IMG/VR virus record: IMGVR_UViG_3300024264_000015
Coordinates: 26,320-90,319 of that record
Length of the DNA stretch: 64,000 nt
Source of the DNA: a virus
Reading direction: 5' to 3' (one strand)
The stretch's first letter is position 1, and the number at the start of each line of letters is the position of its first letter. Positions 17,719 through 55,895 of this stretch are shown one piece after another. The translations under genes and the position numbers were made by a program. Under the pieces are notes generated by a model, which did not search any database, was not told where the DNA came from, and was given only the letters and a program-made list of their open reading frames with translations.

Positions 17719-19021
17719 ATTTTATATATTAGTAACTCATACTTTACACAAGGTTCAAAGACACTTTTCTTACTCAGGAATACAACCTAAGGAAGCTATG
17801 GTAGTTATAAATACTACTAATGATGTTTTCTATAAACAATGTAGCAACTGGTGTGAATCGCAAGGCATACCATGGATTCGTACAGAATCTGATGGTACAC
17901 CTGCGACTGGAAAGAATAGTGTCTTGGATTTGTTTTTAAAAAGTAAAGATGATTATATGGTAGCTGTAGATGGTGATGATTATATCACTAAATATGGCTA
18001 TGCTTATTATAAAAATGTTGTAAACCAAGATAACACCCCCGATAGTTTATGTCTATATAAACAACAATCCCAACTAATCACCATTTTTGGTCAAAGAATA
18101 TGGATTAATCTTATGGGACTCCCCACAGATTTAGATACTGAAATGCATATACGTAGAAGTCATTTAATGGGAGAAGTGTACGCACACCATTTAAAAGATT
18201 ATTATGAAGAAAAGTATGGAGACCTAGAACTATATGTAGAAGATTGTTTGAAACATACAAAAGAAAATTTATATTATGTCTATAAGTATTATGAAAGATA
18301 TAAAATATATGATAACGATTTTGCAGAATCTCATTGTAGACCTGTATTGTTTTCCAAAGCAGCAGCAAAAGAATGTCATTTTCCTAGTAATGTACCTGTA
18401 GGAGAAGATACTTTAGTATATTTACAACTTAAAAATGCACATTTTCAAGGAAGAATACATACTGAACTAGTAGATGAACTAAAAGAAAATATGACTTATC
18501 TTTATGACTGTATAAAAGCGGACGGAGACGATTTAGGAGCTATGCTAGGAATTACTCTTAATCAGACAGACTATACTTGGGTACGTTTAATAAATATAAA
18601 ATTAAAAGAAATGGAACAAAAAGGAGAGTTACATGCTATTCCGCTACCTGTAAATAATTGTTTACCAAGTAAGTGGAAAAAAGATAACATAATACCTGCA
18701 AGACCCCAGTTTCCTCTTGATTTTAATTTAAAGAAATGGGATGAAAGATGGGAAGACAAACCCCAATACGATAAACCAAGTGATAAAGCTATGGAATTAA
18801 TAGATAATATAAGAATGTGTGAGTATTATGCGTCTACGGAATCTGGAGTAGTATTGCAAATAATAGAACAACAAAAAGAAAACAAAAAACAATTATTAGA
18901 AGTTTTAGGCCTAAGTCCTAATGCTATGGTCAAGTTTCCTAAAGGCTACTTTAAAAACTCTAGACCTTACTTTCACCACGCTACTCCTCAAGAAGTAGCA
19001 CAACTTTATCCAAAATCATGA
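17702..19021 (+). CDS. GT-A glycosyltransferase-like protein
   Basis: VVINT, SDGTPATGKNSVL, VAVDGDD (DxD), VGEDTL. Confidence 0.6.
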   Translation: MQKNLRFYILVTHTLHKVQRHFSYSGIQPKEAMVVINTTNDVFYKQCSNWCESQGIPWIRTESDGTPATGKNSVLDLFLKSKDDYMVAVDGDDYITKYGYAYYKNVVNQDNTPDSLCLYKQQSQLITIFGQRIWINLMGLPTDLDTEMHIRRSHLMGEVYAHHLKDYYEEKYGDLELYVEDCLKHTKENLYYVYKYYERYKIYDNDFAESHCRPVLFSKAAAKECHFPSNVPVGEDTLVYLQLKNAHFQGRIHTELVDELKENMTYLYDCIKADGDDLGAMLGITLNQTDYTWVRLINIKLKEMEQKGELHAIPLPVNNCLPSKWKKDNIIPARPQFPLDFNLKKWDERWEDKPQYDKPSDKAMELIDNIRMCEYYASTESGVVLQIIEQQKENKKQLLEVLGLSPNAMVKFPKGYFKNSRPYFHHATPQEVAQLYPKS

Positions 19022-19647
19022 AAATCTTTATAGGTTATGAATCTGCATACCCACAAATGTTTGACGTCTGTGCAAAAAGCATAAATCGTTACAATTCCAA
19101 TCATGAAATCATACCACTCAAAAAATCGGAAATATCCGAATATACTCGTCCTTTTCAGAACGAGAGTACAGAGTTTGCCTTTACTCGTTTTCTAGTACCA
19201 CAGCTCTGTGACTACGAAGGGGAAGCTTTATTCTGTGATGGAGATTTCTTATGGCTCTGTGACCCTGAAGAAGTTATGGATTATTTTTCCGATGAACATA
19301 CAGTTCATGTGGTAAAACATCCTAGTTTCCTCGTCAAACCTAAGAAAATGAAAAACAAGAAAAACCATGCTTATCCTAGAAAATACTGGTCAAGTCTTAT
19401 GCTTTTCAATAATCCTAAGTGTAAAGAACTTACTTATGATTATGTAAACCAAGCCCCAGCGGGTGCATTGCATGAGTTACATTGGGCAGATAGTATAGGG
19501 GAACTTCCTGCGCAGTATAATGCCATGGTAAATTATTACAAATTCAAGAGACCAAAAGCACTCCACTATACAGACGGCGGGCCTTGGTTAAATATAAACG
19601 AGTGTTCGGAGTACACAGCAAAATGGATGACACTTTACAAAAGTTAA
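19018..19647 (+). CDS. glycosyltransferase (GT8-like)
   Basis: KIFIGY, STEFAFTRFLVP, FCDGDFL, YPRKYWSSLMLFN, HYTDGGPW. Confidence 0.8.
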   Translation: MKIFIGYESAYPQMFDVCAKSINRYNSNHEIIPLKKSEISEYTRPFQNESTEFAFTRFLVPQLCDYEGEALFCDGDFLWLCDPEEVMDYFSDEHTVHVVKHPSFLVKPKKMKNKKNHAYPRKYWSSLMLFNNPKCKELTYDYVNQAPAGALHELHWADSIGELPAQYNAMVNYYKFKRPKALHYTDGGPWLNINECSEYTAKWMTLYKS

Positions 19648-20273
19648 CAGAAGATAAAAATATTATACTTGTGGGAAATTCAGTGGAAATGTTGGAGCAT
19701 GAGTATGGGGAGTACATAGAAAAGTTTGATACAATTGTACGATTTGGAAATGGTATACCTGATAAACACCCTAAGAATATGGGCACTCGCACAGATATAT
19801 GGATTACAGGGTGGCTTCGTATGATTAAACATAAACATTTTCCAACCGCGTATAAATTATTCAATCGTTGCAGAATACACTTGGATATAAAACCTAAAGA
19901 AATGAAACCTGAGTTTGAATATGAGACTATGTTCGATGATGACGAATTAAAAAATATTTATAAAATGGTAGGGGCAAAGAATAATGTGAAGATGGGAAAT
20001 AGACCGAGTGCAGGTTTCTTAGGTATATTATTTTTTCTTACTAAAACCAATCCTAAGTCAATTACTCTAATTGGCTTTGACTTTTTCTCTAAAAAATTAC
20101 CTTTTAAAAGTGGCAATGATTACCCTGCAAGTTGGCATCTACCACACAATTCACAAGAGGCTAGTCCGCATAATATTATGGAAAAACCACTTGTGCAAAA
20201 ATGGGCAAAGGAAGGTAAGTTGAAATGGAAAATCTTATCTGACTTGAACGAAGAGTTCTTAGATTTTTCCTAG
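19623..20273 (+). CDS. GT29/sialyltransferase-like protein
   Basis: IILVGNS...IEKFDTIVRF...GTRTD (sialylmotif L-like), PSAGF, LIGFDFF (S-like). ATG at 19623 preferred. Confidence 0.7.
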   Translation: MDDTLQKLTEDKNIILVGNSVEMLEHEYGEYIEKFDTIVRFGNGIPDKHPKNMGTRTDIWITGWLRMIKHKHFPTAYKLFNRCRIHLDIKPKEMKPEFEYETMFDDDELKNIYKMVGAKNNVKMGNRPSAGFLGILFFLTKTNPKSITLIGFDFFSKKLPFKSGNDYPASWHLPHNSQEASPHNIMEKPLVQKWAKEGKLKWKILSDLNEEFLDFS

Positions 20274-21239
20274 TTTATATCCGACTTCAATTAATTTTCT
20301 TGATACTTGTTTCTGTTTATTTGATTTAAATAATAGAAGTTCGTTGAGTCTAGCATTTCTTAAATTTACAGGTATGTTCGGTATCTGTGCAGTCCACAAA
20401 TCCCAAGGTATTCCTAATTGTACTCCTGCAGGTAGATACTCATATTTTTTAAGTAACCACTCTGGTTTTACATGGACACTAAATGCTTTTCTCATAATTA
20501 CATTGTGATTAATAAAGTCTTTTGTATTTAGTGCTTCGTAAGTAAGAAGTTTATCATTTTTACCGTTTACATAAACTGGCATTGCTTTTCCTCTGTAATG
20601 AAACTTCTCAAAGAAAGACTGATTCCAACTACCCATAACTCTTCTATCTATATGATGTGGATAGAGTACAGGATTGATTCTATTAGTCTGACCTCTTGCA
20701 AATAGTAATTTTTCATCGAAAGTAACCATTTTATCCCAATTTATAATAAAGAACTGGGGGTCAACCATACCTTTACTTACAGTTTCTTTTCTACCTACAT
20801 GCTCTTCTTCAAACATTTGACTTTTCCAACCTAAAATATCATAGTACTTTTTATAAGTAGGATGGTCTTTATAGACATGATTATGGCTATATAAAACAAA
20901 TTTATCATCAAAGTATTTATTATCAGGTAATTCGTTTTTCCAATTATTTCTTAAGAATATTCTTGCACCACCTGCGTACATAACTCTTTTGTTTAGTCCG
21001 CCTTTATCTTTCCAATACTCTTTTAAGTATCTTATAGCTCTAGCTTGTTCTTCACCTTTCCAGAAACTTTGATATACTTTTACGTTTTCTATATTACTTA
21101 TTACCCACTCTACTACACTTTTATCCCAGTCATCTTCGTGAATAAATAAATGCAAGCGAAAGTCCTCGTCTTTCTCAATCAGAGAAGCAAGTGTAAATAA
21201 ACTAAAATCTTTTATGTATGTATGTACTATCTCAATCAT
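20259..21239 (-). CDS. hypothetical protein, possibly a divergent GT-A glycosyltransferase
   Basis: N-terminal FTLASL...FRLHLFI pattern resembles GT8 N-termini; no clear DxD; lies within the GT cluster. Confidence 0.45.
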   Translation of the reverse strand: MIEIVHTYIKDFSLFTLASLIEKDEDFRLHLFIHEDDWDKSVVEWVISNIENVKVYQSFWKGEEQARAIRYLKEYWKDKGGLNKRVMYAGGARIFLRNNWKNELPDNKYFDDKFVLYSHNHVYKDHPTYKKYYDILGWKSQMFEEEHVGRKETVSKGMVDPQFFIINWDKMVTFDEKLLFARGQTNRINPVLYPHHIDRRVMGSWNQSFFEKFHYRGKAMPVYVNGKNDKLLTYEALNTKDFINHNVIMRKAFSVHVKPEWLLKKYEYLPAGVQLGIPWDLWTAQIPNIPVNLRNARLNELLLFKSNKQKQVSRKLIEVGYKLGKI

Positions 21240-22143
21240 CTTGTTTTTTATATTCCCAAAAATTATTTATAAACCTTTCAAGTCTTTCTTCAGCATCGTC
21301 ATCAAAATCAAATATGATTCCTGAATTTTTTGCTGATAGAATCTTACGTATAGTATGCGAGGCTTTTGTCCCAGATACTGCATGGTAAATGCTTTCGTAT
21401 GTTAATAAATTCTTTTCTCTTTCTTTTTTAGTATGACTTATCATACCAAGTTTTTTGTTTAATAATAATGCTACTATGCCCATTTCACTGTTTGGCATTG
21501 TAGCAACTTCTTTACAGTTGTATAAAATTTCATGCCCACTTTGTTTTTTATTTAATACTTTATCTGCTCCAAAATCTTTTTTAAATTTAGCCATATAAAG
21601 TGCATTAGTGATAGGATGTGGTTTTATTACATAACCTTGTTTTATGTATTCTCTCATTCTACCCCAATGTATAACTCTATCTTTACATATTAAATTACTA
21701 CCTGGTGGAAAAATTACTTTATCATAATGTTCTTGTGTTTGTGCTAAAATGTATTTATCTTCTATACAATTTAGTATTTTTTCTATTCTTTCTTCGTCAA
21801 TTTCTATATCTGAATTAGCAATAGATAGCATTAACTTATCGTTAATTTTTATGGAATTTGTTTTTACATAAATTCCTCTACCTAAAAAATCTGTGTATAA
21901 CCACTTTCGTATTGTAAACAATTCATTTGTGTTAAACCAAACGTCATATTCAAATCTAACACCTTCTCTCCACTCTGGTATTACTCTTTGTTTGAACTTT
22001 AGTAATGCGTCTCTTTGATGGTCGGGTCTATAGCAAGAGCCTGATTTCATAAAGTGAGTAACCTTATCTCCAAGACTCTCATTACTTGCCATCGGAACTA
22101 ATTTATCTTTTTTGACTGGACTTTTATTTATTTTTAGTTCCAT
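21232..22143 (-). CDS. capsule-synthesis (KpsC/KpsS-like) GT-B protein
   Basis: YVIKPHP and VATMPNSEMGIVALLLNKK resemble the KxHP and T-x-NS-x-x-G-x-EAL motifs of that family. Confidence 0.55.
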   Translation of the reverse strand: MELKINKSPVKKDKLVPMASNESLGDKVTHFMKSGSCYRPDHQRDALLKFKQRVIPEWREGVRFEYDVWFNTNELFTIRKWLYTDFLGRGIYVKTNSIKINDKLMLSIANSDIEIDEERIEKILNCIEDKYILAQTQEHYDKVIFPPGSNLICKDRVIHWGRMREYIKQGYVIKPHPITNALYMAKFKKDFGADKVLNKKQSGHEILYNCKEVATMPNSEMGIVALLLNKKLGMISHTKKEREKNLLTYESIYHAVSGTKASHTIRKILSAKNSGIIFDFDDDAEERLERFINNFWEYKKQDD

Positions 22144-22282
22144 TCTTTAACTCAAATAATTGTGTTTCTATATTTTTTAATCTATCTTCTTGTTCTACGA
22201 TTGTGTCCATTAGTGCTACAACGATGCTTTCTAGTTTATCGTTGACATACTTGGGGGTTATATCTTTGTCCTTTAGTTTCAT
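22124..22282 (-). CDS. 52-aa coiled-coil protein (not in ORF track)
   Basis: Translated by hand: MKLKDKDITPKYVNDKLESIVVALMDTIVEQEDRLKNIETQLFELKNGTKNK*. Starts immediately after the stop of the Thr-rich gene. Confidence 0.7.
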   Translation of the reverse strand: MKLKDKDITPKYVNDKLESIVVALMDTIVEQEDRLKNIETQLFELKNGTKNK

Positions 22283-25200
22283 TTATTCTGTCCATGTTGA
22301 ACCGTCCCAGTAACTTGCACTAAAGTCGCTTATACTTGCGACTTCCGTGTCAAAGATTGTACCCGCCTGAGACGCTGTTATTCTTTCAAATACTGTGGTA
22401 CTCGTATTAAATGTAGTTGTGGTAAGGTGGTCAGTATCTCTAGTAGTTTCTGTTACCTTACCTGTGGCAAATGTTGTGGTTGTTGTTTTGCCTGTTTCAA
22501 ATTCTGTTGTTCTAGTAGTTTCAAAAGTAGTTGTTGTGTCATACGCTGTAGACTTAGATGTCGTTGTAGACCTATTTGTCTCAAATGTAGATACTGTACT
22601 TCTGCTTGATGCTGTATCTCTTGCAGTAAGTGTTGCTCTAGCAGTATTAAATGTACTTGTAGTTTCTCTACTAGATTGCGTAGCTCTAGTGGTTATTGTT
22701 CCTAAAGTTGTAGCATATACTGTTGTTGTATCTCTACTTGTAGTTGTTCCTCTAGCTGTATTGAACGTAGTAGTAGTTGCTCTAGAAGTTCCTGTTACTC
22801 TTTGTGAGCCTCTACTTGTTAAGTATGCTGTTTCATATGCAGTACTTCTTGATGTGTTTGTATTTCTAGTAGTTCCGAATGATGTATTATCTACATACGC
22901 TGTTGTTCTTGAAGTTTCTGTTCCTCTGCTTGTATTTGTGCTTCTACTTGTATTTGTACTTCTGCTTGTTGTAAATACTGTATTATCTACATATGCTGTT
23001 GTATAGTTTGTATTTACTAAGAATACAGTAGTGAAATTAGTACTATCTACGTATGCGGTTGTTCTTGTAGTATTCGTATTTCTTGTAGTTGCAAAACTTG
23101 TATTATCTACATAGGCTGTTGTTCTACTTGTTTCAGTAGTTCTAGAAGTGTTTGTTGCTTGTGTAGTTGTATATGCAGTTTCATTTGTAAATGATGTATT
23201 ATCTACATATGCTGTTGTAAATGATGTATTATCTACATACGCTGTTGTTCTTGAAGTATTTGTGCTTCTTGTAGTTGAGAATGAAGTATTATCTACATAA
23301 GCTGTTGTAAATGATGTATTATCTACATACGCGGTTGTTCTAGCTGTATTTGTACTTCTTGTAGTTGAGAATGAAGTATTATCTACATATGCTGTTGAGA
23401 AACTTGTATTATCTACATATGCTGTTGTTCTAGCTGTATTTGTGTTTCTTGTAGTTGCAAATGCAGTGTTATCTACATATGCTGTTGTAAATGAAGTGTT
23501 ATAACTTGTGTTGTTTGTAAATCCTGTATCTCTACTTGTGTTAGTGGCTTGTGTTGTATTATATGCTGTGCTATTTGTAAACCCAGTATTTCTACTTGTA
23601 TTCGTTGCTTGTGTTGTATTATATGAAGTAGAGTTTGTAAAGCCTGTATTTCTACTTGTATTTGTAGCCTGTGTAGTTGTTCTAGATGTATTCGTGTTTC
23701 TAGAAGTGTTTGTGTTTCTACTTGTATTTGTTGCTTGCGTAGTATTGTAAGCAGTATTTCTAGAAGTATTCGTGTTTCTACTTGTATTCGTTGCTTGTGA
23801 AGTATTGTAAGCAGTATTAAATGAAGTATTATTTGCAAATCCTGTAGACCTAGTTGTATTATATGAAGTATTACGTGCACCAGTTGCTCTAGTTGTATTT
23901 ACTTGTCTAAATGCTGAACTTGCAGAAGTACCTGTTCTTCTTTGATAAGTTCCAGAATATCCACTATTCTGACCACCACCCCAGCCGGAATAATAGTTTC
24001 CTGGGCTAGACCAGTATACTGTAGTAATTCTATTGTAGTAATAAGTCAGGTATGAAGTAGAGTCTGTAGTTGACCTTGTAGTTCCATAAGAAGTATTCCT
24101 ACTAGTATTTGTACCTCTAATTGTACCTCTACTTGTACCAAATGATGTGTTATCTACATAAGCTGTACTGTTTGTAAATCCTGTACCTCTAGTTGTTCCG
24201 AATGAAGTGTTGTCTACATATGCTGTACTATTTGTAAATGAAGTAGAGTTTGTAAATGAAGTACTAAAAGATGTGTTGTCTACATATGCAGTGCCTCTAG
24301 TTGTATTTGTATTTCTTGTTGTACCAAATGAAGTGTTATCTACGTATGCAGTACTTCTACTTGTGTTTGTATTTCTACTTGTTCCAAAAGAGGTGTTATC
24401 TACATAAGCAGTAGACCTACTTGTATTTGTACTTCTTGTTGTGCTTCTTGTTGTACTTCTCGATGTATTTGTTGCTTGAGTAGTTGTATACGAAGTAGAG
24501 TTTGTAAATCCTGTAGACCTAGAAGTATTTGTAGATTGTGTAGTTGTTCTAGATGTATTTGTTGCTTGAGTAGTTGTATACGAAGTATTATTAGTAAATC
24601 CTGTACTTCTACTTGTATTCGTAGACTGTGTAGTTGTTCTACTCGTATTAGTAGATTGTGTAGTATCATAACTTGTATTGTTACTAAATCCTGTACTTCT
24701 ACTTGTGTTAGTAGACTGTGTAGTTGTTCTACTTGTGTTTGTACTTCTAGCTGTATTTGTATTTCTTGTTGTACCAAATGAAGTGTTGTCTACATATGCT
24801 GTTGCTGTTCCATATACAGTAGTTCTAGAAGTGTTTGTTGCTTGTGTAGTTGTATACGAAGTAGAGTTTGTAAATCCTGTGTCTCTTGATGTATTTGTAT
24901 TTCTACTTGTAGTTACACTTGTATTAGAAGCTCTAGAAGTTGTTCTACTCGTATTAGTAGATTGTGTAGTATCATAACTTGTATTATTCGTAAATCCTGT
25001 ATTATCTACATAAGCTGTTGATGTATTATATACAGTAGTTCTAGAAGTGTTTGTTGCTTGTGTAGTTGTATACGCTGTCTGGTTTGTAAATCCTGTAGAC
25101 CTAGATGTACCAATTACAGTATCAAAACTTGTAACATATGTTGTAGTTGTATTGTAGTTGGTAGTAGTGCTACGTGCGGTATTAAAGGTCGTAGTAGTTG

Positions 25201-25699
25201 TATACGTAGTAGTAGTATCGTGACTTGTTAAAAAAGTGGTTGTAGTTGTATACGCTGTTGTAGTATTAAATACTGTTGTAGTACCTTGTGTAGTTGTAAA
25301 GGTAGTTGTAGTATTGAATGTTGTAGTAGTTGTAAATAGAGTTGTAGTTGTAGTGGTTGTATTATATGTTGTAGTCGTATTGTGAGTAGTGCTTCTACTT
25401 GTATTCGTAGCTCTATCCGTATCAAATGTTGTTACTCTATCTGTGTTATATGTTGTTGTTGTGCCACGAGTTGTATCAAATCCAGTAGTCGTATTAAACG
25501 CTGTTACCTGTACACCTGATATGGTAGTTCTAGCTGTTGCTGTATTTCTTGAAGTTTCGTGAACGACAGAAAATGGCCCTTCTAGAGCACCACTATCGTT
25601 TACGTATACTTCATTAACCCTTCGTATTGTGCCATTGTCGTTGATGGCGAGAAAGGATATCTGACGTAATGTACCATTGTCATTAACATATATTGCCAT
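22283..25699 (-). CDS. 1138-aa Thr/Ser/Asn-rich self-complementary repeat protein; predicted giant beta-hairpin fibre
   Basis: 4/6-residue units mirrored about residue ~577 with aromatic versus Arg/Gln/Lys complementarity; located at the end of the tail-fibre block. Confidence 0.85.
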   Translation of the reverse strand: MAIYVNDNGTLRQISFLAINDNGTIRRVNEVYVNDSGALEGPFSVVHETSRNTATARTTISGVQVTAFNTTTGFDTTRGTTTTYNTDRVTTFDTDRATNTSRSTTHNTTTTYNTTTTTTTLFTTTTTFNTTTTFTTTQGTTTVFNTTTAYTTTTTFLTSHDTTTTYTTTTTFNTARSTTTNYNTTTTYVTSFDTVIGTSRSTGFTNQTAYTTTQATNTSRTTVYNTSTAYVDNTGFTNNTSYDTTQSTNTSRTTSRASNTSVTTSRNTNTSRDTGFTNSTSYTTTQATNTSRTTVYGTATAYVDNTSFGTTRNTNTARSTNTSRTTTQSTNTSRSTGFSNNTSYDTTQSTNTSRTTTQSTNTSRSTGFTNNTSYTTTQATNTSRTTTQSTNTSRSTGFTNSTSYTTTQATNTSRSTTRSTTRSTNTSRSTAYVDNTSFGTSRNTNTSRSTAYVDNTSFGTTRNTNTTRGTAYVDNTSFSTSFTNSTSFTNSTAYVDNTSFGTTRGTGFTNSTAYVDNTSFGTSRGTIRGTNTSRNTSYGTTRSTTDSTSYLTYYYNRITTVYWSSPGNYYSGWGGGQNSGYSGTYQRRTGTSASSAFRQVNTTRATGARNTSYNTTRSTGFANNTSFNTAYNTSQATNTSRNTNTSRNTAYNTTQATNTSRNTNTSRNTNTSRTTTQATNTSRNTGFTNSTSYNTTQATNTSRNTGFTNSTAYNTTQATNTSRDTGFTNNTSYNTSFTTAYVDNTAFATTRNTNTARTTAYVDNTSFSTAYVDNTSFSTTRSTNTARTTAYVDNTSFTTAYVDNTSFSTTRSTNTSRTTAYVDNTSFTTAYVDNTSFTNETAYTTTQATNTSRTTETSRTTAYVDNTSFATTRNTNTTRTTAYVDSTNFTTVFLVNTNYTTAYVDNTVFTTSRSTNTSRSTNTSRGTETSRTTAYVDNTSFGTTRNTNTSRSTAYETAYLTSRGSQRVTGTSRATTTTFNTARGTTTSRDTTTVYATTLGTITTRATQSSRETTSTFNTARATLTARDTASSRSTVSTFETNRSTTTSKSTAYDTTTTFETTRTTEFETGKTTTTTFATGKVTETTRDTDHLTTTTFNTSTTVFERITASQAGTIFDTEVASISDFSASYWDGSTWTE
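22439..25498 (-). repeat. mirror-symmetric array of 12/18-bp (4/6-aa) units, e.g. TNTSR, AYVDNTSF, GFTNSTSY, TTTQ
   Basis: Direct reading of the translation, residues 68-1087. Confidence 0.9.
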
Positions 25700-25702
25700 T
25701 TT

Positions 25703-25924
25703 TTAACTCGAATAGACAAACCATACATGACCGTCACTCGTTCCTGAAGTATTTGTTGGTGCTGTTGTTGTTATTGTAAAAGGTAGTCTAGCTTTTGCGA
25801 TAGTACCAGAGCCAATCTTTCCTGATGCGACCGCTCCTTGAAAGTTTCTGCTAGAGTCAACTACCTGTGTTCCATCAATCTTGATACCTGCGTCTTCGAT
25901 GTTAAAATCTAATTTTTGTCCCAT
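25703..25924 (-). CDS. 73-aa fibre adaptor-like protein
   Basis: Ends TTAPTNTSGTSDGHVWFVYSS, a motif common in phage fibre proteins; in frame with the downstream gene. Confidence 0.65.
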   Translation of the reverse strand: MGQKLDFNIEDAGIKIDGTQVVDSSRNFQGAVASGKIGSGTIAKARLPFTITTTAPTNTSGTSDGHVWFVYSS

Positions 25925-25925
25925 T

Positions 25926-28900
25926 TTATACCTCTATTGTTGTTCTTATGAACTTGTATGCCATTGTGTCTGCACTTGCTGGCGTTACTCTTAATCTTAC
26001 ATTACCTGCACTTACATCTGCGTCAAATGTTGCTTGTGCTCCATTGTCAAAGATAGACGCGTACTGTGTTAAGTATACATCTGACCCATCATGGAATAGG
26101 AAAATTTCTAATGCTTGATAATCTGAATCTGTTGTGTTTTTAATCTGTACTACATATTTAGCAGTTCTAAATACAGTAGTTGCAAAACTATCTAGTGTAA
26201 ATACTGTCGTTGCAGATGAACTTCCTGTACCAACATCCATACCAGCTACTTCGTCTATGTGAAGTTTTTGTGGTGGATTAGTGTCTTGAATACCTATGCT
26301 ACCTGCTACATTTACTTTATTAGATGTGCTTCCACCAAACCCTAAATCTCCTCCAAATGTAATACTTCCTGTCATTGTTTTACCACCAAGTGCTGCACTT
26401 GATAATTGTGTAGTTGTTATAGAGTTATTTGCAATCTCACTTGACCCAATAGCGTTTGCTGCTATTTTACTGGCGTCTATAGCATTGTCTTGAATTTTTG
26501 CAGTTGTTACTGAATTACCAGCTAATTGTGCTGTATTAATTAGACCATCTTGTATAAAGCTAACGCTATTTATTGCGTTTGCAGCTAGTTGTGTTGCTGT
26601 GATAGAAGCGTTTGGTATTTTTGCAGAAGTAATAGCATTATCAGCTATCTCTACTGCTGTTATTGTACCATTTGGTATTTTAGCACCTGATACAGAGTTA
26701 TCAGCTAATTTACCTACTGTTACTGCTCCTGTGCCTATTTGTTCTTCTGTTACTGCACCTGAAGCTATTTTGTTTACTGTTACGGAGTTAGAACCAAGTT
26801 TTGCTTCTGTTACAGAACCAGTTGATAAATGAATAGCATCTATACTTCCTGTTACTAACTCTGCTGAATCAACGGAGTTAGAAGCAATATGTCTGGCTAG
26901 TACAGCGTCTGTTGCTAGTTTAGTAGCATCTATTGAGTTGTCAGCCATATTGCCTGTAGCAATAGTATTGGCTGCTATTTTTCCTGTTGTGACCGAGGCG
27001 TCTGCTAGATGCTCGTTATCTATACTTCCTGCAACATAATGTTCTGAATTTATAACATCATCTGCTATTTTTGTGCCGTCTACTATGTCTGCGGCTAAAT
27101 GTATTCTGTCTATACTGCCTGATACGAGTTCTGAACTGTCTACAGAGTTTGCTGCTAAGTGTAATGCTCCTACAGAGCCAGTAATTAATTCTGAAGCTCC
27201 GACAGCATTTGCTGCTATCTTACTAGCGTCTACAGCATTTGTTCCTATTTTTGCACTTATTACTGCACCAGAAGCTAACTGTGTAGAGCCTACTGCTCCT
27301 CCAGCTATTTCTGCAGCTCCTACAGCATTGTCTGCTATATGAGAAGCATCAATAGACCCTGTTGATATTTTATTAGCATTTATTGCGTTATTTGCAATGT
27401 TTGGCCCTGTAATAGTTTCTGAGCCTACTTTGGCACCAGTGACTGCGTCATCTGCTAAGTGTATAGTATCAATGCTACCTGTCACTAATTCTGCTGAATC
27501 TACTGAGTTTGCTGCTAGTTCACTTGCTGTTATGCTTCCTGCGACTATCTTACTTGCATTTACTGTGTTGTTTGCAATCGCACTTGCTGTTCCTGTTAAG
27601 TTACCTGTAACGTTGCCTTCTACATTTGCTACTATAGTACCTGTTGTAATTGTTAGGTCACCTGTTGAAGCACCTGTAAATGTGCCTGTACCTACTTTAA
27701 ATTTATCTTCACTTTCATCAAATCCTATAAATGCGTTATTTGAATCTCCTCTTTCAATTACTATACCAGCGTCTCCATTTGGAGACCCTGTTGTACCTGT
27801 ACCTAATTCTAATAATGGGTCAGATATTGTAGTTGTAGTAGAGTTAACAGTCGTTGTTGTACCGTTTACTGTTAAGTTTCCTGAAAGTGTAACGTTTCCT
27901 GTGAATGTTTGACCACCTAATGCATCTGATTTAAGTTCAGAAGCTGATACTGCATTTGCTGATATTTCACTGTTACCAACTGCATTTGCGGCTATCTTTG
28001 CTCCTGTTACAGCATTGCCTGCTATATGTATTGCATCAATAGAGCCAGAGATTAATTCTGCGCTGTCTACTGAATTGTCTGCTAGTTCGCTTGAACCTAC
28101 AGCACCTGCATTGATGTGTCTTGCTAGTATTTGGTCTGTTGCAATTTTTGCTGAAGTAACTTGGTTAGCTGCAATATGTATTGTGTCAATACTACCAGTT
28201 GCTATTTCTGAACTATCTATTGAGTTTTCAGCTATATGTGTTACATCTATAACACCTGTACCTATTTTTGCAGCAGTGATTGAATTATCCCCTAAATGTA
28301 TAGTATCTATACTACCTGTTACTAACTCTGCTGAATCTACTGAGTTTGCTCCTAAGTGGTCTGCTGTTATTGTTGCTGTAGGTATGTGTCTTGCAACGAT
28401 TGAATTTTGTGCTATCTTAGTTCCGTCTACTGCGTTATCTGCAATATTGGCTAAGGCTATTGTATTGGCGGCTATTTTTGCGCCTGTTACTTGTAAGTTT
28501 CCTATATGTGCAGTATCTATACTACCATCTACTAAATGTTCTGAATCTATTGAGTCATCTGCAATTTTTGAGCCACTTACTGCATCCGCTCCTATTTTTC
28601 CACTAGTTACTGCTCCTGTACCTATTTTTGCTTCTGTTACTTGTGAAGCTCCAATATGTATAGTATCAATGCTACCTGATACAAGTTCAGAACTATCAAT
28701 AGAGTTTGCAGCTATTTGTGTAGAACCTACACTATTAATTCCTACATTGGAACTATTTACTATTGCTGTCCAACCCATGTTAGCGTGTGCTGAACATTGG
28801 TAATACAATATTTGAGGAGTAGTACTCGTAACGGCAATTTCTGTGTATGCACCTGAACTTCCTGCTGTTCCGTTATTTGTAACTCCTGTAGTATAAGCCG

Positions 28901-29801
28901 TTGTTTTATTGGCTTCTAAATAAAATCTGAAAGGATGGTTAGCGTTTGACGAGTCATCTTGCTTAAATTTATAGGTATTCCCAGGTTGTAATACTAATAC
29001 TGGAGACTCTTTGCTTTCGAACTTATATCCTAGAGTGCTACCATTTCCGTAGTCACCATGTGCGGAAGTTTTTGTAACAACCGTTACATCATATTCATAA
29101 GTTCCAAATTCTTGAATTGATTTTGCGTTCTTGTGTATTTCACTTGAAGTAACATTATCAGCAACTATTTTTGCTGTACTCACTGAATTTGTGCTTAGTT
29201 TTGCACCTGTTACTTGTAAAGCTCCAATATGTATAGTGTCAATACTACCTGTTATTAGTTCGCTAGAGTCTACTGAGTTTGCGCCAAGTTGTGTTGAAGT
29301 AATACTCCCATCAGCAATATGATGAGCAGTAACTGCATTTTGGGCAATCCTCGCTGTTGTTATTTGATTTTCAGCAATCTTGTCTGTAGTTACAGCATTA
29401 TCAGCTATCTGTAATGTTTCGATTGCGTTTGTTGCTATCTCTGAAGTGTCTACTGAGTTTGCAGCTATCTCGTTGGAAGTAACAGCGTTAGCAGCTATTT
29501 TGGCTGTTGTGACTTGTCCTGTTCCAAGGTGAATAGTATCAATAGAACCACTTACTAACTCACTTGAATCTACTGAGTTTGCAGATATACCTGCGTTTGT
29601 TACTGAGTTATCTCCTACACCTGTTACCGCACTAGCTTGTAGCTGTGCAGCTCCAACAGAGTTTGTAGCAAGTTCTGAGGTGGTAATAGCATTAACTGCT
29701 ATTTCAGAAGCACCAATAGCATTTGCAGCTATCTTTGATGCTACTACACTATTGTTTCCTATTGAATCTTGTTGTACTAAAAATTTACCGATTAGTGGCA
29801 T
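25926..29801 (-). CDS. long tail fibre with 5/10-aa IAANAVTSAKI-type repeats and an inserted cupredoxin-like domain
   Basis: Extensive repeats; HPF...YYQCSAHANMG; GNLTVNGTTTTVNSTT motif; C-terminal RTAKYVVQI domain. Confidence 0.8.
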   Translation of the reverse strand: MPLIGKFLVQQDSIGNNSVVASKIAANAIGASEIAVNAITTSELATNSVGAAQLQASAVTGVGDNSVTNAGISANSVDSSELVSGSIDTIHLGTGQVTTAKIAANAVTSNEIAANSVDTSEIATNAIETLQIADNAVTTDKIAENQITTARIAQNAVTAHHIADGSITSTQLGANSVDSSELITGSIDTIHIGALQVTGAKLSTNSVSTAKIVADNVTSSEIHKNAKSIQEFGTYEYDVTVVTKTSAHGDYGNGSTLGYKFESKESPVLVLQPGNTYKFKQDDSSNANHPFRFYLEANKTTAYTTGVTNNGTAGSSGAYTEIAVTSTTPQILYYQCSAHANMGWTAIVNSSNVGINSVGSTQIAANSIDSSELVSGSIDTIHIGASQVTEAKIGTGAVTSGKIGADAVSGSKIADDSIDSEHLVDGSIDTAHIGNLQVTGAKIAANTIALANIADNAVDGTKIAQNSIVARHIPTATITADHLGANSVDSAELVTGSIDTIHLGDNSITAAKIGTGVIDVTHIAENSIDSSEIATGSIDTIHIAANQVTSAKIATDQILARHINAGAVGSSELADNSVDSAELISGSIDAIHIAGNAVTGAKIAANAVGNSEISANAVSASELKSDALGGQTFTGNVTLSGNLTVNGTTTTVNSTTTTISDPLLELGTGTTGSPNGDAGIVIERGDSNNAFIGFDESEDKFKVGTGTFTGASTGDLTITTGTIVANVEGNVTGNLTGTASAIANNTVNASKIVAGSITASELAANSVDSAELVTGSIDTIHLADDAVTGAKVGSETITGPNIANNAINANKISTGSIDASHIADNAVGAAEIAGGAVGSTQLASGAVISAKIGTNAVDASKIAANAVGASELITGSVGALHLAANSVDSSELVSGSIDRIHLAADIVDGTKIADDVINSEHYVAGSIDNEHLADASVTTGKIAANTIATGNMADNSIDATKLATDAVLARHIASNSVDSAELVTGSIDAIHLSTGSVTEAKLGSNSVTVNKIASGAVTEEQIGTGAVTVGKLADNSVSGAKIPNGTITAVEIADNAITSAKIPNASITATQLAANAINSVSFIQDGLINTAQLAGNSVTTAKIQDNAIDASKIAANAIGSSEIANNSITTTQLSSAALGGKTMTGSITFGGDLGFGGSTSNKVNVAGSIGIQDTNPPQKLHIDEVAGMDVGTGSSSATTVFTLDSFATTVFRTAKYVVQIKNTTDSDYQALEIFLFHDGSDVYLTQYASIFDNGAQATFDADVSAGNVRLRVTPASADTMAYKFIRTTIEV

Positions 29802-29802
29802 T

Positions 29803-30135
29803 TTATGTTTGCTCCAAATAAGATAGAACTACGTCTATCGAGCTTGACGTGTTTGACTGTACTTTAATTGCATCACCAGCTTCTAATACTACTTTTGCGT
29901 CTCCACCAATTGGTGCGAGTGTTGAACCTGCTGGTATTTCTATTCCATGAACTATACTGATGTGATTAGTTGTACTTGCGTCATAAAATTGAGCAGTAGC
30001 ATTTATATCTGCGCCGCCAACATTACATAGATATAAACCTATAATCGTTGTTGTTGTTGAACTAGGACAAGTGTATACTGTAGATAAACTTGTTCCTATG
30101 TCATTTCCTGTTGCTGTTTTAAATGCTGATGCCAT
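29803..30135 (-). CDS. small virion structural protein
   Basis: TVYTCPSSTTTTIIGL...KVVLEAGDAIKV...DVVLSYLE; beta-rich type seen in aquatic phage tail regions. Confidence 0.6.
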   Translation of the reverse strand: MASAFKTATGNDIGTSLSTVYTCPSSTTTTIIGLYLCNVGGADINATAQFYDASTTNHISIVHGIEIPAGSTLAPIGGDAKVVLEAGDAIKVQSNTSSSIDVVLSYLEQT

Positions 30136-53843: not shown

Positions 53844-55895
53844 TTAACTACCTTTATACATCCAACCCCACTTAGAAGTTGCACCGTCAATTAAGTCAGT
53901 GAATCCTAATCTCTGAGAAGCCACTAGGACTCTTCTTTGATTAGCTACTTCGTAGTCTGATTCAATTGTAACACCTCTTAATCTTGGCATTACATAGTTT
54001 CTTGGGTTAACAGCGATAGCTGCGAACTTAGATATTGCTGGTGCAGCAAACTCGTCACACATTAAGACTCTAGAGCCATAAACCTGTCCGATTTCACCGT
54101 TTAGCTTAGTAGCCATGTCGCCAACTAGGTTAGCGTCTTGGAACTCAGCATCTTCTAATAGTTCATAGTAAGACCTTTGTGAAACAATATATACTACTTC
54201 ACTTGGATTTATACCATATTTACCCATATTCTTTCTCATTTCAAGTAAGTCAGAAGCTACAATTTTATCAGTAGCAAAAGCTGTTGCTGATTGTGTGTAG
54301 TCACTGTCATTTCTTGCTAAGTGTAGTAAACCTTCGAAGGTTGCTTGTGATGTACCATATACACCGTCAGCGTCATCACCAGCTAGGATAGCATTTTCGA
54401 TACCTCTAGCGTGTGCTCTAACCATTGATTCTCTAATTAAAGGAAGAATCGGTAAGATTGCATCTTCTTCAGTTTCGTTACCTAAGTAAGATTGTGAGAT
54501 TAATTTTTTGGTTGAAAGAACTCTTTCAGTCATATCTACCCCACCTGCTGAACCAGGGTTATAAGAATCCCCTCTTTCTTGCAAGTTACCATGTGGTGAA
54601 GCACCACTAGCTGCTTGGTTGCCTGTAAATTCAGCATAACCAGCATCTGGTAAGATTGGGATAATCATATTAGCGGAATTCATAGCTATTTCTCTAAATA
54701 GAGGTGCTAATACTAATTCGTTTTGAATATCTCTTTCGATTTGTGTTGATACGATTTGCTCAAAGTCTGCTGAAGAAACGCCAACACCACTATGTGCGTT
54801 AACTTTTTCCATTAAACCTTTTGCATAATCACTGTTCCATCCTTTACCAGTCGCTAAACCAGCAAATTTTGCGTCAATGATATCATTCTCGTAAGCTTTT
54901 TTCCAGTCGCCTTGACCTTGTCTGTCCGCAAAGATTCTTTTTGATTCTCTGATTGACATGATTTCTTCTGATTTCTCAGCTAGTTGTTTCTCTAATGAGT
55001 CTACAACTGTTTTTAAGTCTTCATGTTTTTCAGAAACTCTTTTCTCTACGTCATTCATTAATCTTTCAGCGCCAGTTAAACCAGCTTCGATAATAGTTTT
55101 TTGCTCGTCCTGTTTTGCTTCTTGAACAGCCTTTTCATTAGCCTCTACTTCAGCTTGCTTTTCAGCCTGCTCTTGTAGTGCTTTTTCGTCTGCTGCTTTC
55201 TGCTCGGCTTGCTTCATAGCAATTTTAGCAGCTGTATCTTCAGCTACTTTCTTTGCAAATGCTTCCAAGTCGATTGAAGTTTCAGGAGATTTTTTCTCTT
55301 CTGACATATCAGTCTCCGTTGATGAGGATTTCTCCTCGCTTGGCTGCTCAATTTTAACAGCGTCTGCTGCTGCGGTTGAGTTAGCCTGTAATATTTCTTT
55401 TTGGTACTTTCTGTATTCATCCATACTATCAAATGACTTGCTTAAGCCAAAGGTTGCCCCTTGGTTGCAAGGTACTGATACTACAGACACTTCAAAAAGT
55501 TCCGCGTCTTTAATTTTGAATCCATCACTTTCAACCATGTATTCAGAATCTTTACATCTGAATCCAACTGAAAATGCTCCCAGGACTCCATCTTTCACTA
55601 AATGAGTAATGTCACCTGCGGCTTTTGATATCTTTGCAGTGATATCTAAACCTTTATCAGTGACCTCTAAACCAGTTGCTCTACCGATAGGTTTGTTGTA
55701 GTCGTGGTTAAAAAGAATGATTGGATTACTTTTGAAGTTTTCCAGTCCCCCTTTTGTCCATGCCTCGCTTTCGATTATATCTCCAGCTCTATCTAGTGCA
55801 TTTGTACTTGCAGAACCTTTGATGTTTATTCCACCATCTTCGGTTTCGCCTAGTGATTTAAAAGTACTCGTCCAATGATAAATTTTATTCGACAT
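53844..55895 (-). CDS. prohead protease + scaffold (delta) + HK97-fold major capsid protein in one ORF
   Basis: Protease ILFNHDYNKPIG, AFSVGF, ELFEVSVVSVPCN; coiled-coil delta region; T5 pb8-like ETEEDAILPILPLIRE. Probable internal start at 55307. Confidence 0.9.
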   Translation of the reverse strand: MSNKIYHWTSTFKSLGETEDGGINIKGSASTNALDRAGDIIESEAWTKGGLENFKSNPIILFNHDYNKPIGRATGLEVTDKGLDITAKISKAAGDITHLVKDGVLGAFSVGFRCKDSEYMVESDGFKIKDAELFEVSVVSVPCNQGATFGLSKSFDSMDEYRKYQKEILQANSTAAADAVKIEQPSEEKSSSTETDMSEEKKSPETSIDLEAFAKKVAEDTAAKIAMKQAEQKAADEKALQEQAEKQAEVEANEKAVQEAKQDEQKTIIEAGLTGAERLMNDVEKRVSEKHEDLKTVVDSLEKQLAEKSEEIMSIRESKRIFADRQGQGDWKKAYENDIIDAKFAGLATGKGWNSDYAKGLMEKVNAHSGVGVSSADFEQIVSTQIERDIQNELVLAPLFREIAMNSANMIIPILPDAGYAEFTGNQAASGASPHGNLQERGDSYNPGSAGGVDMTERVLSTKKLISQSYLGNETEEDAILPILPLIRESMVRAHARGIENAILAGDDADGVYGTSQATFEGLLHLARNDSDYTQSATAFATDKIVASDLLEMRKNMGKYGINPSEVVYIVSQRSYYELLEDAEFQDANLVGDMATKLNGEIGQVYGSRVLMCDEFAAPAISKFAAIAVNPRNYVMPRLRGVTIESDYEVANQRRVLVASQRLGFTDLIDGATSKWGWMYKGS

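Follow-up and report, generated by a model that had tools for sequence, protein, structure and literature searches.

The gene examined here lies in a 64,000-nucleotide stretch of viral DNA (IMG/VR virus record IMGVR_UViG_3300024264_000015, positions 26,320 to 90,319; hereafter referred to as the window) and encodes a protein of 1138 amino acids (aa) that, from the position of its gene, appears to be a tail fiber. The two halves of the protein are complementary mirror images of each other. Judging from the protein and its relatives, the chain probably folds back at a central turn with its halves in register, giving a very long, thin beta fiber; we put the probability of this reading at about 0.8. 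An earlier reading of the window, made without database searches (the sequence-only reading), had proposed such a fold-back governed by a pairing code. That proposal is supported here by a single pairing register, conservation of the register in a family of relatives, co-evolution of the two arms, mirrored repeat arrays, and turn motifs at the mirror point.

The gene is the only long open reading frame (ORF) at its locus, in a window with a guanine-plus-cytosine content of 36%. It encodes 1138 residues plus a stop codon, with the following divisions:

Positions 22283 to 25699, minus strand: the whole putative fold-back fiber gene, intact in 66 distinct relatives and located in a conserved tail-fiber module.
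Positions 25550 to 25699, minus strand: N-terminal domain, residues 1 to 50, with three tandem repeats of about 14 aa, [IV]-x-V-N-D-x-G-x-[LI]-R.
Positions 24050 to 25549, minus strand: N-arm, residues 51 to 550, with about 48 decapeptide modules, each aromatic or cationic, and key residues on even positions.
Positions 23891 to 24049, minus strand: apex, residues 551 to 603, nonrepetitive, rich in Tyr, Trp, and Gly, at the mirror point.
Positions 22388 to 23890, minus strand: C-arm, residues 604 to 1104, with modules that complement the N-arm read backwards and key residues on odd positions.
Positions 22286 to 22387, minus strand: C-terminal domain, residues 1105 to 1138, with invariant columns from E1105 to W1136, ending in a conserved WDGxxW.

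The composition of the protein is heavily skewed (T 397, S 142, N 120, R 83, Y 57, F 56, Q 25, H 4), with Thr making up 35% and Ser 12% of all residues. The key residues, or keys, of the arms are F, Y, R, Q, and K.

To locate the register, positions at which F or Y would stand opposite R, K, or Q were counted for every value of i + j, a check that had been proposed beforehand. There was one sharp peak, at i + j = 1155, with 91 pairs compared with 23 to 27 in shuffled sequences. Shuffling the 4- and 6-residue units gave 23.5 ± 2.0 pairs (maximum, 32), shuffling chunks of four units gave 27.3 ± 2.8 pairs (maximum, 41 in 2000 trials), and shuffling the C-arm alone gave 26.3 ± 2.9 pairs, so the register at 1155 stands more than 20 standard deviations above the shuffles. 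The next-best registers were 1161 (46 pairs), 1149 (45 pairs), and 1215 (34 pairs); those at 1161 and 1149 arise because keys occur as same-class doublets six residues apart. The register extends from R51/F1104 to the apex. Of the 96 keyed pairs on even positions 68 to 546, 89 are complementary, and the seven others (H106-K1049, T116-F1039, F156-L999, H160-Y995, I196-Y959, V262-F893, and D546-R609) are exactly those that the sequence-only reading had listed. Its other counts were reproduced as well: all 95 intervals between keys are either 4 residues (46 intervals) or 6 residues (49 intervals) in an aperiodic succession, all 16 key Gln residues face Phe, and no two keys of the same class are paired.

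An origin of this symmetry in the DNA or RNA was looked for. No DNA inverted repeats were found at mirrored places, in agreement with the earlier spot checks, and the anti-diagonal of the DNA that matches the mirror axis of the protein was unremarkable (33% complementary, z = 1.7, the usual value for codon phase, with no excess). Therefore, the mirror symmetry acts on the protein.

The register is built from two kinds of decapeptide module. We counted 44 aromatic modules, of the pattern [T/S]-T-[A/G]-[Y/F]-x-[D/N/T]-[N/S/T]-T-[S/A]-[F/Y], and 43 cationic modules, of the pattern x-T-[T/S]-[R/Q]-x-T-N-T-S-R, and opposite every aromatic module there is a cationic one. The parity of the keys is uniform at 92 of 95 N-arm positions and 96 of 100 C-arm positions, and the two-residue period runs unbroken across about 500 residues per arm. 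Both this unbroken period and the near absence of odd-length insertions and deletions (indels) from the arms of relatives are consistent with a continuous pleated strand. One face of such a strand would carry the keys and is otherwise dominated by Thr (52%), with these Thr residues forming invariant columns of the family alignment. The other face is composed of T, S, N, A, G, and V. The protein contains 87 N-x-S/T sequons, compared with 56.5 ± 5.1 in shuffled sequences, and 69 of the 83 sequons in the arms are on the non-key face.

The register would be set by a binary code of modules of the form x-T-x-K1-x-x-x-T-x-K2, where K1 and K2 are the keys: Y or F followed by F or Y in aromatic modules (for example, AYVDNTSF and GFTNSTSY) and R or Q followed by R in cationic modules (for example, TQATNTSR). 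On the key face Thr would stand opposite Thr, and on the non-key face Asn would be matched with Asn. Any slip in the register would set like opposite like, because the modules follow one another aperiodically.

To examine the pairing rules across the family, 12,040 cross-arm positions, drawn from 53 length classes, were tabulated. The most frequent key pairs were F-R (852), Y-R (682), and F-Q (489), followed by F-K (61) and Y-Q (7). Pairs of the same class (FF, FY, YY, RR, QR, and QQ) were found 0 times each, a result that is partly built in because the windows were picked for complementarity. The contrast between F-Q and Y-Q (489 versus 7) is free of this selection effect. Thus, Gln is partnered almost solely by Phe and not by Tyr, and Arg is partnered by either Phe or Tyr. 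In one relative of 762 aa (L094; relatives are identified by locus numbers), Trp stands opposite Gly in the main register. The stereochemical specificity of these pairs, both the preference of Gln for Phe over Tyr and the Trp-Gly pairing in L094, argues for direct contact between the arms. N-N pairs were found 402 times, compared with 108 expected.

Relatives were found with pattern scans, which gave 40 viral loci and 188 metagenome loci, 80 of the latter being kept. On these viral and marine metagenome contigs there were 66 distinct full-length relatives of 689 to 1621 aa, among them L013 (886 aa), L073 (1483 aa), and L016 (1525 aa). The best register of 64 of the 66 was at a value of i + j equal to the protein length plus 15 to 18, the offset following the number of residues after the C-terminal WDGxxW. 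Local windows in the relatives had 12 to 16 complementary keys of 12 to 16. The arms of each relative match each other specifically: N- and C-arms of the same protein formed 60 to 92 pairs, whereas arms swapped between diverged relatives formed only 19 to 40. Length changes are mirrored too. For example, L010 carries, relative to the fiber protein, two insertions of 22 aa per arm, located in mirror positions. Nearly all indels within the arms have even lengths, and odd lengths occur at the center. When each N-arm was aligned, with gaps allowed, to its own reversed C-arm, the arms proved balanced in 38 of the 53 length classes. The sequence-only reading had also anticipated compensatory swaps between aromatic and cationic residues, and double swaps of this kind were seen, with both orientations present in 9 of 90 pair columns. 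Column covariation calculated from a MAFFT alignment was noisy because the aligner does not set gaps in mirror fashion.

In a long subfamily (L011, L016, L023, L027, L067, L085, L088, and L098), the N-arm repeats every 21 residues where the C-arm period is 20, and so contains one additional residue per repeat over five or six consecutive repeats, at N-arm residues of about 430 to 540. The spacing of these extra residues looks like that of regular beta-bulges and would fit two-strand pairing.

Tandem arrays in the gene are also mirrored between the arms:

Positions 24463 to 24742, minus strand: 90-bp array of 3.1 copies, N-arm residues ~320 to 412, which mirror to residues 743 to 835; partner at 23190 to 23502.
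Positions 23190 to 23502, minus strand: 90-bp array of 3.5 copies, C-arm residues ~733 to 837; mirror partner of 24463 to 24742.
Positions 24261 to 24442, minus strand: 60-bp array of 3.0 copies, N-arm residues ~420 to 480; partner is the 60-bp array at 23507 to 23674, residues ~676 to 731.
Positions 24122 to 24239, minus strand: 60-bp array of 2.0 copies, N-arm residues ~488 to 526; partner is the 60-bp array at 23697 to 23818, residues ~628 to 668.

Partner arrays have equal periods, similar copy numbers, and unrelated DNA sequences. Contigs from three independent seawater studies reproduced the unique parts of the gene exactly. Contigs from a seawater metatranscriptome library matched the N-arm exactly at positions 24812 to 24981 (170 nucleotides) and 25194 to 25602 (409 nucleotides). 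Such libraries can contain DNA, and these matches are no proof of transcription.

The mirror point, located solely from the pairing of the inner arms, has the features of a turn. Gly or Pro was present within seven residues of it in 41 of 46 length classes; Gly made up 18% of residues there (3.4% overall) and Pro 4% (0.1% overall). The turn motifs DPEGG, DSEG, DDEG, and SEG recur at this point, flanked by alternating hydrophobic residues. Turns of 1 to 28 aa with DPEGG, DSEG, or SEG occur here in relatives, and the turn of the 886-aa relative is a tight one. The length of the apex ranges from 1 to about 50 aa across relatives, and odd lengths are tolerated only there. The Gly/Pro turn motifs and the freedom of the apex in length and parity argue for chain reversal and favor an intrachain hairpin over the pairing of separate chains. 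In the fiber protein, pairing may continue inward to Y569/Q586, which would leave a 16-aa Gly-rich loop, and we infer that the chain reverses within residues 551 to 603.

In the fold-back proposed here, the chain would extend outward in one continuous beta strand of about 500 residues, reverse centrally, and return antiparallel in register, so that residue i would face residue 1155 − i. The strands would be in direct contact, the apex would form the tip, and the fiber would be about 160 nm long if fully extended. The N- and C-terminal domains would meet at the virion-proximal end, the C-terminal domain lying beside the N-terminal one. Folding would start at the apex hairpin and then zip outward. 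The arms would evolve by tandem duplication of modules, matched by duplication of the complementary modules opposite. The N-terminal domain, which is strongly conserved with many invariant columns and whose motif is found nowhere else in the window, is the probable virion anchor. Its threefold internal repeat within one chain could dock onto a threefold socket, and docking in this manner could suit a monomeric fiber.

How many hairpins make up the fiber is a separate question. Three hairpins in a six-stranded needle like that of T4 gp37 is an arrangement to which we give not quite even odds; a single ribbon is somewhat less likely; and anything else seems rather unlikely. The most elaborate version of the proposal is also doubtful taken as a whole: a digital code that zips a single chain into one ribbon of 100 to 260 nm through F:R, Y:R, and F:Q pairs (W:G in one member), with compensatory duplications in the arms as in an RNA helix and a sequon-bearing face that would be glycosylated by adjacent transferases.

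Several observations weigh against the fold-back. Structure prediction did not yield the hairpin. An AlphaFold2 model of residues 448 to 707 made without an alignment had a predicted local distance difference test score (pLDDT) of 40.6, with the N-arm in strands of 3 to 9 residues at low confidence, and a model of the whole protein made with a 55-sequence alignment had a pLDDT of 31.4, with strands only in the N-terminal domain (pLDDT of about 60). Both models are mostly coil, and confidence this low is also typical of disordered Thr/Ser-rich stalks. There is no precedent for an isolated two-stranded ribbon of about 160 nm, and such a ribbon might by itself be too flexible. The expectation of the sequence-only reading that homologues keep equal arms held for the placement of the best register but not for 15 of the 53 length classes, in which 20 to 84 extra residues, in whole modules, are present in one arm only (members include L025, L046, L049, L052, L057, L058, L059, L069, L072, L074, L075, L076, and L121). 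Attempts to read these one-arm bulges as side hairpins of their own were not convincing, with 2 to 5 self-pairs of 3 to 6 possible. The bulges may be collapses of repeats during assembly or real, tolerated bulges; if real, they are perhaps intermediates of compensatory duplication. The short-read contigs break at the arrays in the fiber gene, so the copy numbers of these arrays are provisional. The inner halves of L082 (927 aa) and L093 (791 aa) have no resolvable aromatic/cation register; they consist of 18-residue Cys/His modules, with CGFIV opposite NNTHAG, that could be metal or disulfide sites.

Furthermore, no PHROG or Pfam family links the protein to known fibers. The fiber protein had no Pfam match at an E value of ≤0.01 and no match among PHROGs, and its score with NCBIfam NF033849 (serine-rich/mucin-like repeat) was 24.4 bits against a cutoff of 650, a match by composition only. 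Word-based searches for protein homologues with the whole protein and with residues 1 to 70 returned no match, and neither did tblastn searches of phages with the whole protein and with residues 1 to 66, so no cultured relative was found. A protein-atlas search with the fiber protein returned only viral clusters without names.

The same code could in principle operate between chains rather than within one, in an antiparallel bipolar dimer or a daisy-chained open polymer without any fold-back. An antiparallel homodimer would account equally well for complementarity at a constant i + j, and the hairpin is absent from both low-confidence AlphaFold2 models. We nevertheless consider pairing between chains very unlikely. 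Pro/Gly turn motifs mark the mirror point in 41 of 46 length classes, and a sequence such as DPEGG in the midst of a continuous strand would disrupt it. The mirror point accepts loops of 1 to about 50 aa of either parity, whereas indels in the arms are, with few exceptions, even and mirrored. A bipolar rod would also have anchor domains at both ends, which is ill suited to a fiber attached at one end; the fold-back, by contrast, unites both conserved terminal domains. Another possibility is that the hairpin is wound into a two-start beta-solenoid with 20 to 30 residues per turn, which would produce a rod of about 25 nm rather than a ribbon of 160 nm. The sums of module lengths, 20 and 30 residues, and the Asn at a fixed position in the modules are reminiscent of coils with Asn ladders, and AlphaFold2 did cut the N-arm, at low confidence, into strands of 3 to 9 residues. 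A rung of a two-start solenoid would contact the opposite arm on either side, and a second register at ±20 or ±30 would be expected to be as complementary as the first, but registers 1155 ± 20 and 1155 ± 30 were at background (26 to 33 pairs, versus 91). Moreover, key parity is maintained throughout the ~500 residues of an arm, the modules follow an aperiodic order, and the 4/6 spacing varies along the arm, a sequence that coils of constant length could hardly stack. We rate a solenoid as slightly less likely still than pairing between chains.

The least credible alternative is a disordered, mucin-like stalk, heavily glycosylated, in which the arms are unpaired and the mirror pattern has some other cause. 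A content of 35% Thr and 12% Ser, 87 sequons where 56.5 ± 5.1 are expected, conserved glycosyltransferase-like genes alongside, and the very low AlphaFold2 confidence are what such a stalk would be expected to have. Disorder, however, leaves unexplained a sharp register more than 20 standard deviations above background, its conservation over a 2.4-fold range of lengths, the specificity of cognate arms for each other, the mirrored arrays, and the specificity of F-Q and Y-R pairing. Glycosylation of the non-key face is itself compatible with the fold-back and does not count as a competing explanation.

Among known structures, the closest is the needle of T4 gp37 (D10-D11), which the fiber protein would resemble in that the chain runs out to the tip and back. 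As Bartual and colleagues reportedly described it in 2010, this needle consists of three hairpins that together form six antiparallel beta strands. In the fiber protein, an out-and-back course of the gp37 type is suggested by the register from R51/F1104 to the apex and by the central turn motifs. D10 of gp37 comprises residues 811 to 881 and 1010 to 1026, with D11 inserted between them, and the needle has seven iron ions bound by His and small residues opposite large ones, such as G921 versus F970 (PMC6957217). The two proteins differ in most other respects. The arms of gp37 have about 60 residues, compared with 300 to 780 in the fiber family, which makes the latter 5 to 13 times longer. In place of a core of iron coordinated by His-x-His motifs, the fiber protein has just 4 His in 1138 residues and keys that are F, Y, R, Q, or K. 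Neither an aromatic/cation code nor modular repeats are present in gp37, and the fiber protein has both. The gp37 needle is a homotrimer, a state that the fiber protein may share. No homology to gp37 or its collar domain was found with Pfam, PHROG, or phage tblastn searches. The sequence-only reading knew of no described fiber of this design; a search of the literature likewise returned no description of one, although the T4 gp37 needle is a short precedent for folding back (PMC6957217).

Other comparisons are more distant. The similarity to SMC/Rad50 proteins is limited to the fold-back topology. In those proteins, the N-arm pairs with the C-arm via an apex hinge or hook, the termini are joined in one head, and the arm lengths are matched. 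SMC/Rad50 arms are alpha-helical coiled coils with a heptad period, in contrast to the two-residue period of the fiber arms, with their 35% Thr and their beta-branched and aromatic residues. Phe or Tyr opposite Arg or Lys stabilizes antiparallel pairs in designed beta-hairpin peptides. Those peptides have 12 to 20 residues and one or two such pairs, compared with about 90 to 130 pairs serving as a register code in the fiber family. T5 pb1 is, like the fiber protein, the product of a tail-module gene and a long side fiber of a T5-type siphophage. This L-shaped fiber is a parallel homotrimer of a 1396-aa protein with a cleaved C-terminal intramolecular chaperone (PMC4690869). The fiber protein lacks a chaperone domain (of the peptidase S74 type; no Pfam match at E ≤ 0.01) and has halves that are mirror complementary.

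If the fold-back is correct, it represents an architecture for which no counterpart has been described in proteins, in which each arm extends over hundreds of residues, a simple code of two residue letters fixes the register, and co-evolution of the two halves maintains it. Sequence-addressed self-complementarity would then exist in proteins at a scale hitherto known only for nucleic acids, and the family would supply natural rules for designing very long beta ribbons with a specific register. It would also point to a host-recognition device of abundant uncultured marine phages. The family exposes a blind spot in structure prediction as well, with a pLDDT of about 30 despite its evident structural constraint, and the possible link to phage glycosyltransferases provides a testable case of virion glycosylation.

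That link comes from the genes on the downstream side of the fiber gene:

Positions 20259 to 22143, minus strand: genes for 303-aa and 326-aa proteins, possibly glycosyltransferase-like, which always adjoin the fiber gene in related loci.
Positions 19018 to 20273, plus strand: a GT8-like gene (weak) and a GT29-like gene, convergent, conserved beside the fiber module.

The GT29-like gene matched PF00777 with an E value of 1.2e-6, above the cutoff, and the GT8-like gene matched PF01501 with an E value of 0.019, below the cutoff. The 303-aa protein matched phrog_26179 and has 244 homologues with an invariant K-x-H-P and a near-invariant S-E. A profile built from 41 sequences of its family gave a faint match to KpsC/WbbB-type transferases (E value of ~0.6). 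Sequence searches of the PDB with the 303-aa, 326-aa, and 439-aa proteins found nothing significant. Given the wealth of sequons on the non-key face and the conserved transferase-like genes nearby, the fiber may plausibly be glycosylated.

On the other side, the fiber gene is the last gene of a minus-strand tail module. The genes that precede it encode, in order, a phrog_32 tail assembly protein, a phrog_18 minor tail protein, a 2475-aa protein, several smaller proteins, and the products of the two genes immediately upstream:

Positions 25926 to 29801, minus strand: 1291-aa tail-fiber protein (phrog_892 tail fiber, E value of 8e-125), syntenic in related loci.
Positions 25703 to 25924, minus strand: 73-aa protein encoded directly upstream of the fiber gene, with 61 to 94% identity in related loci and no Pfam or PHROG match.

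The order of genes around the fiber gene is the same in all related loci. Location in a tail module, adjacency to other fiber genes, and preserved synteny are all as expected of a tail fiber in general.

The source of the DNA is, to judge from its predicted proteins, a distant, uncultured marine T5-like siphophage, because a fused protease/major capsid protein is 33 to 38% identical to those of T5-like phages. This 683-aa protein (positions 53844 to 55895, minus strand) corresponds to two proteins of T5-like enterobacterial and vibrio phages, the prohead protease and the major capsid protein, with that identity extending over 84 to 96%, and the two appear to be fused in the single ORF. In a nucleotide comparison limited to positions 20000 to 30000 of the window, the sole match to any deposited phage was a 58-bp stretch within the 1291-aa fiber gene (positions ~28502 to 28559) that shares 88% identity with a hypothetical gene of Prochlorococcus phage P-SSP10.

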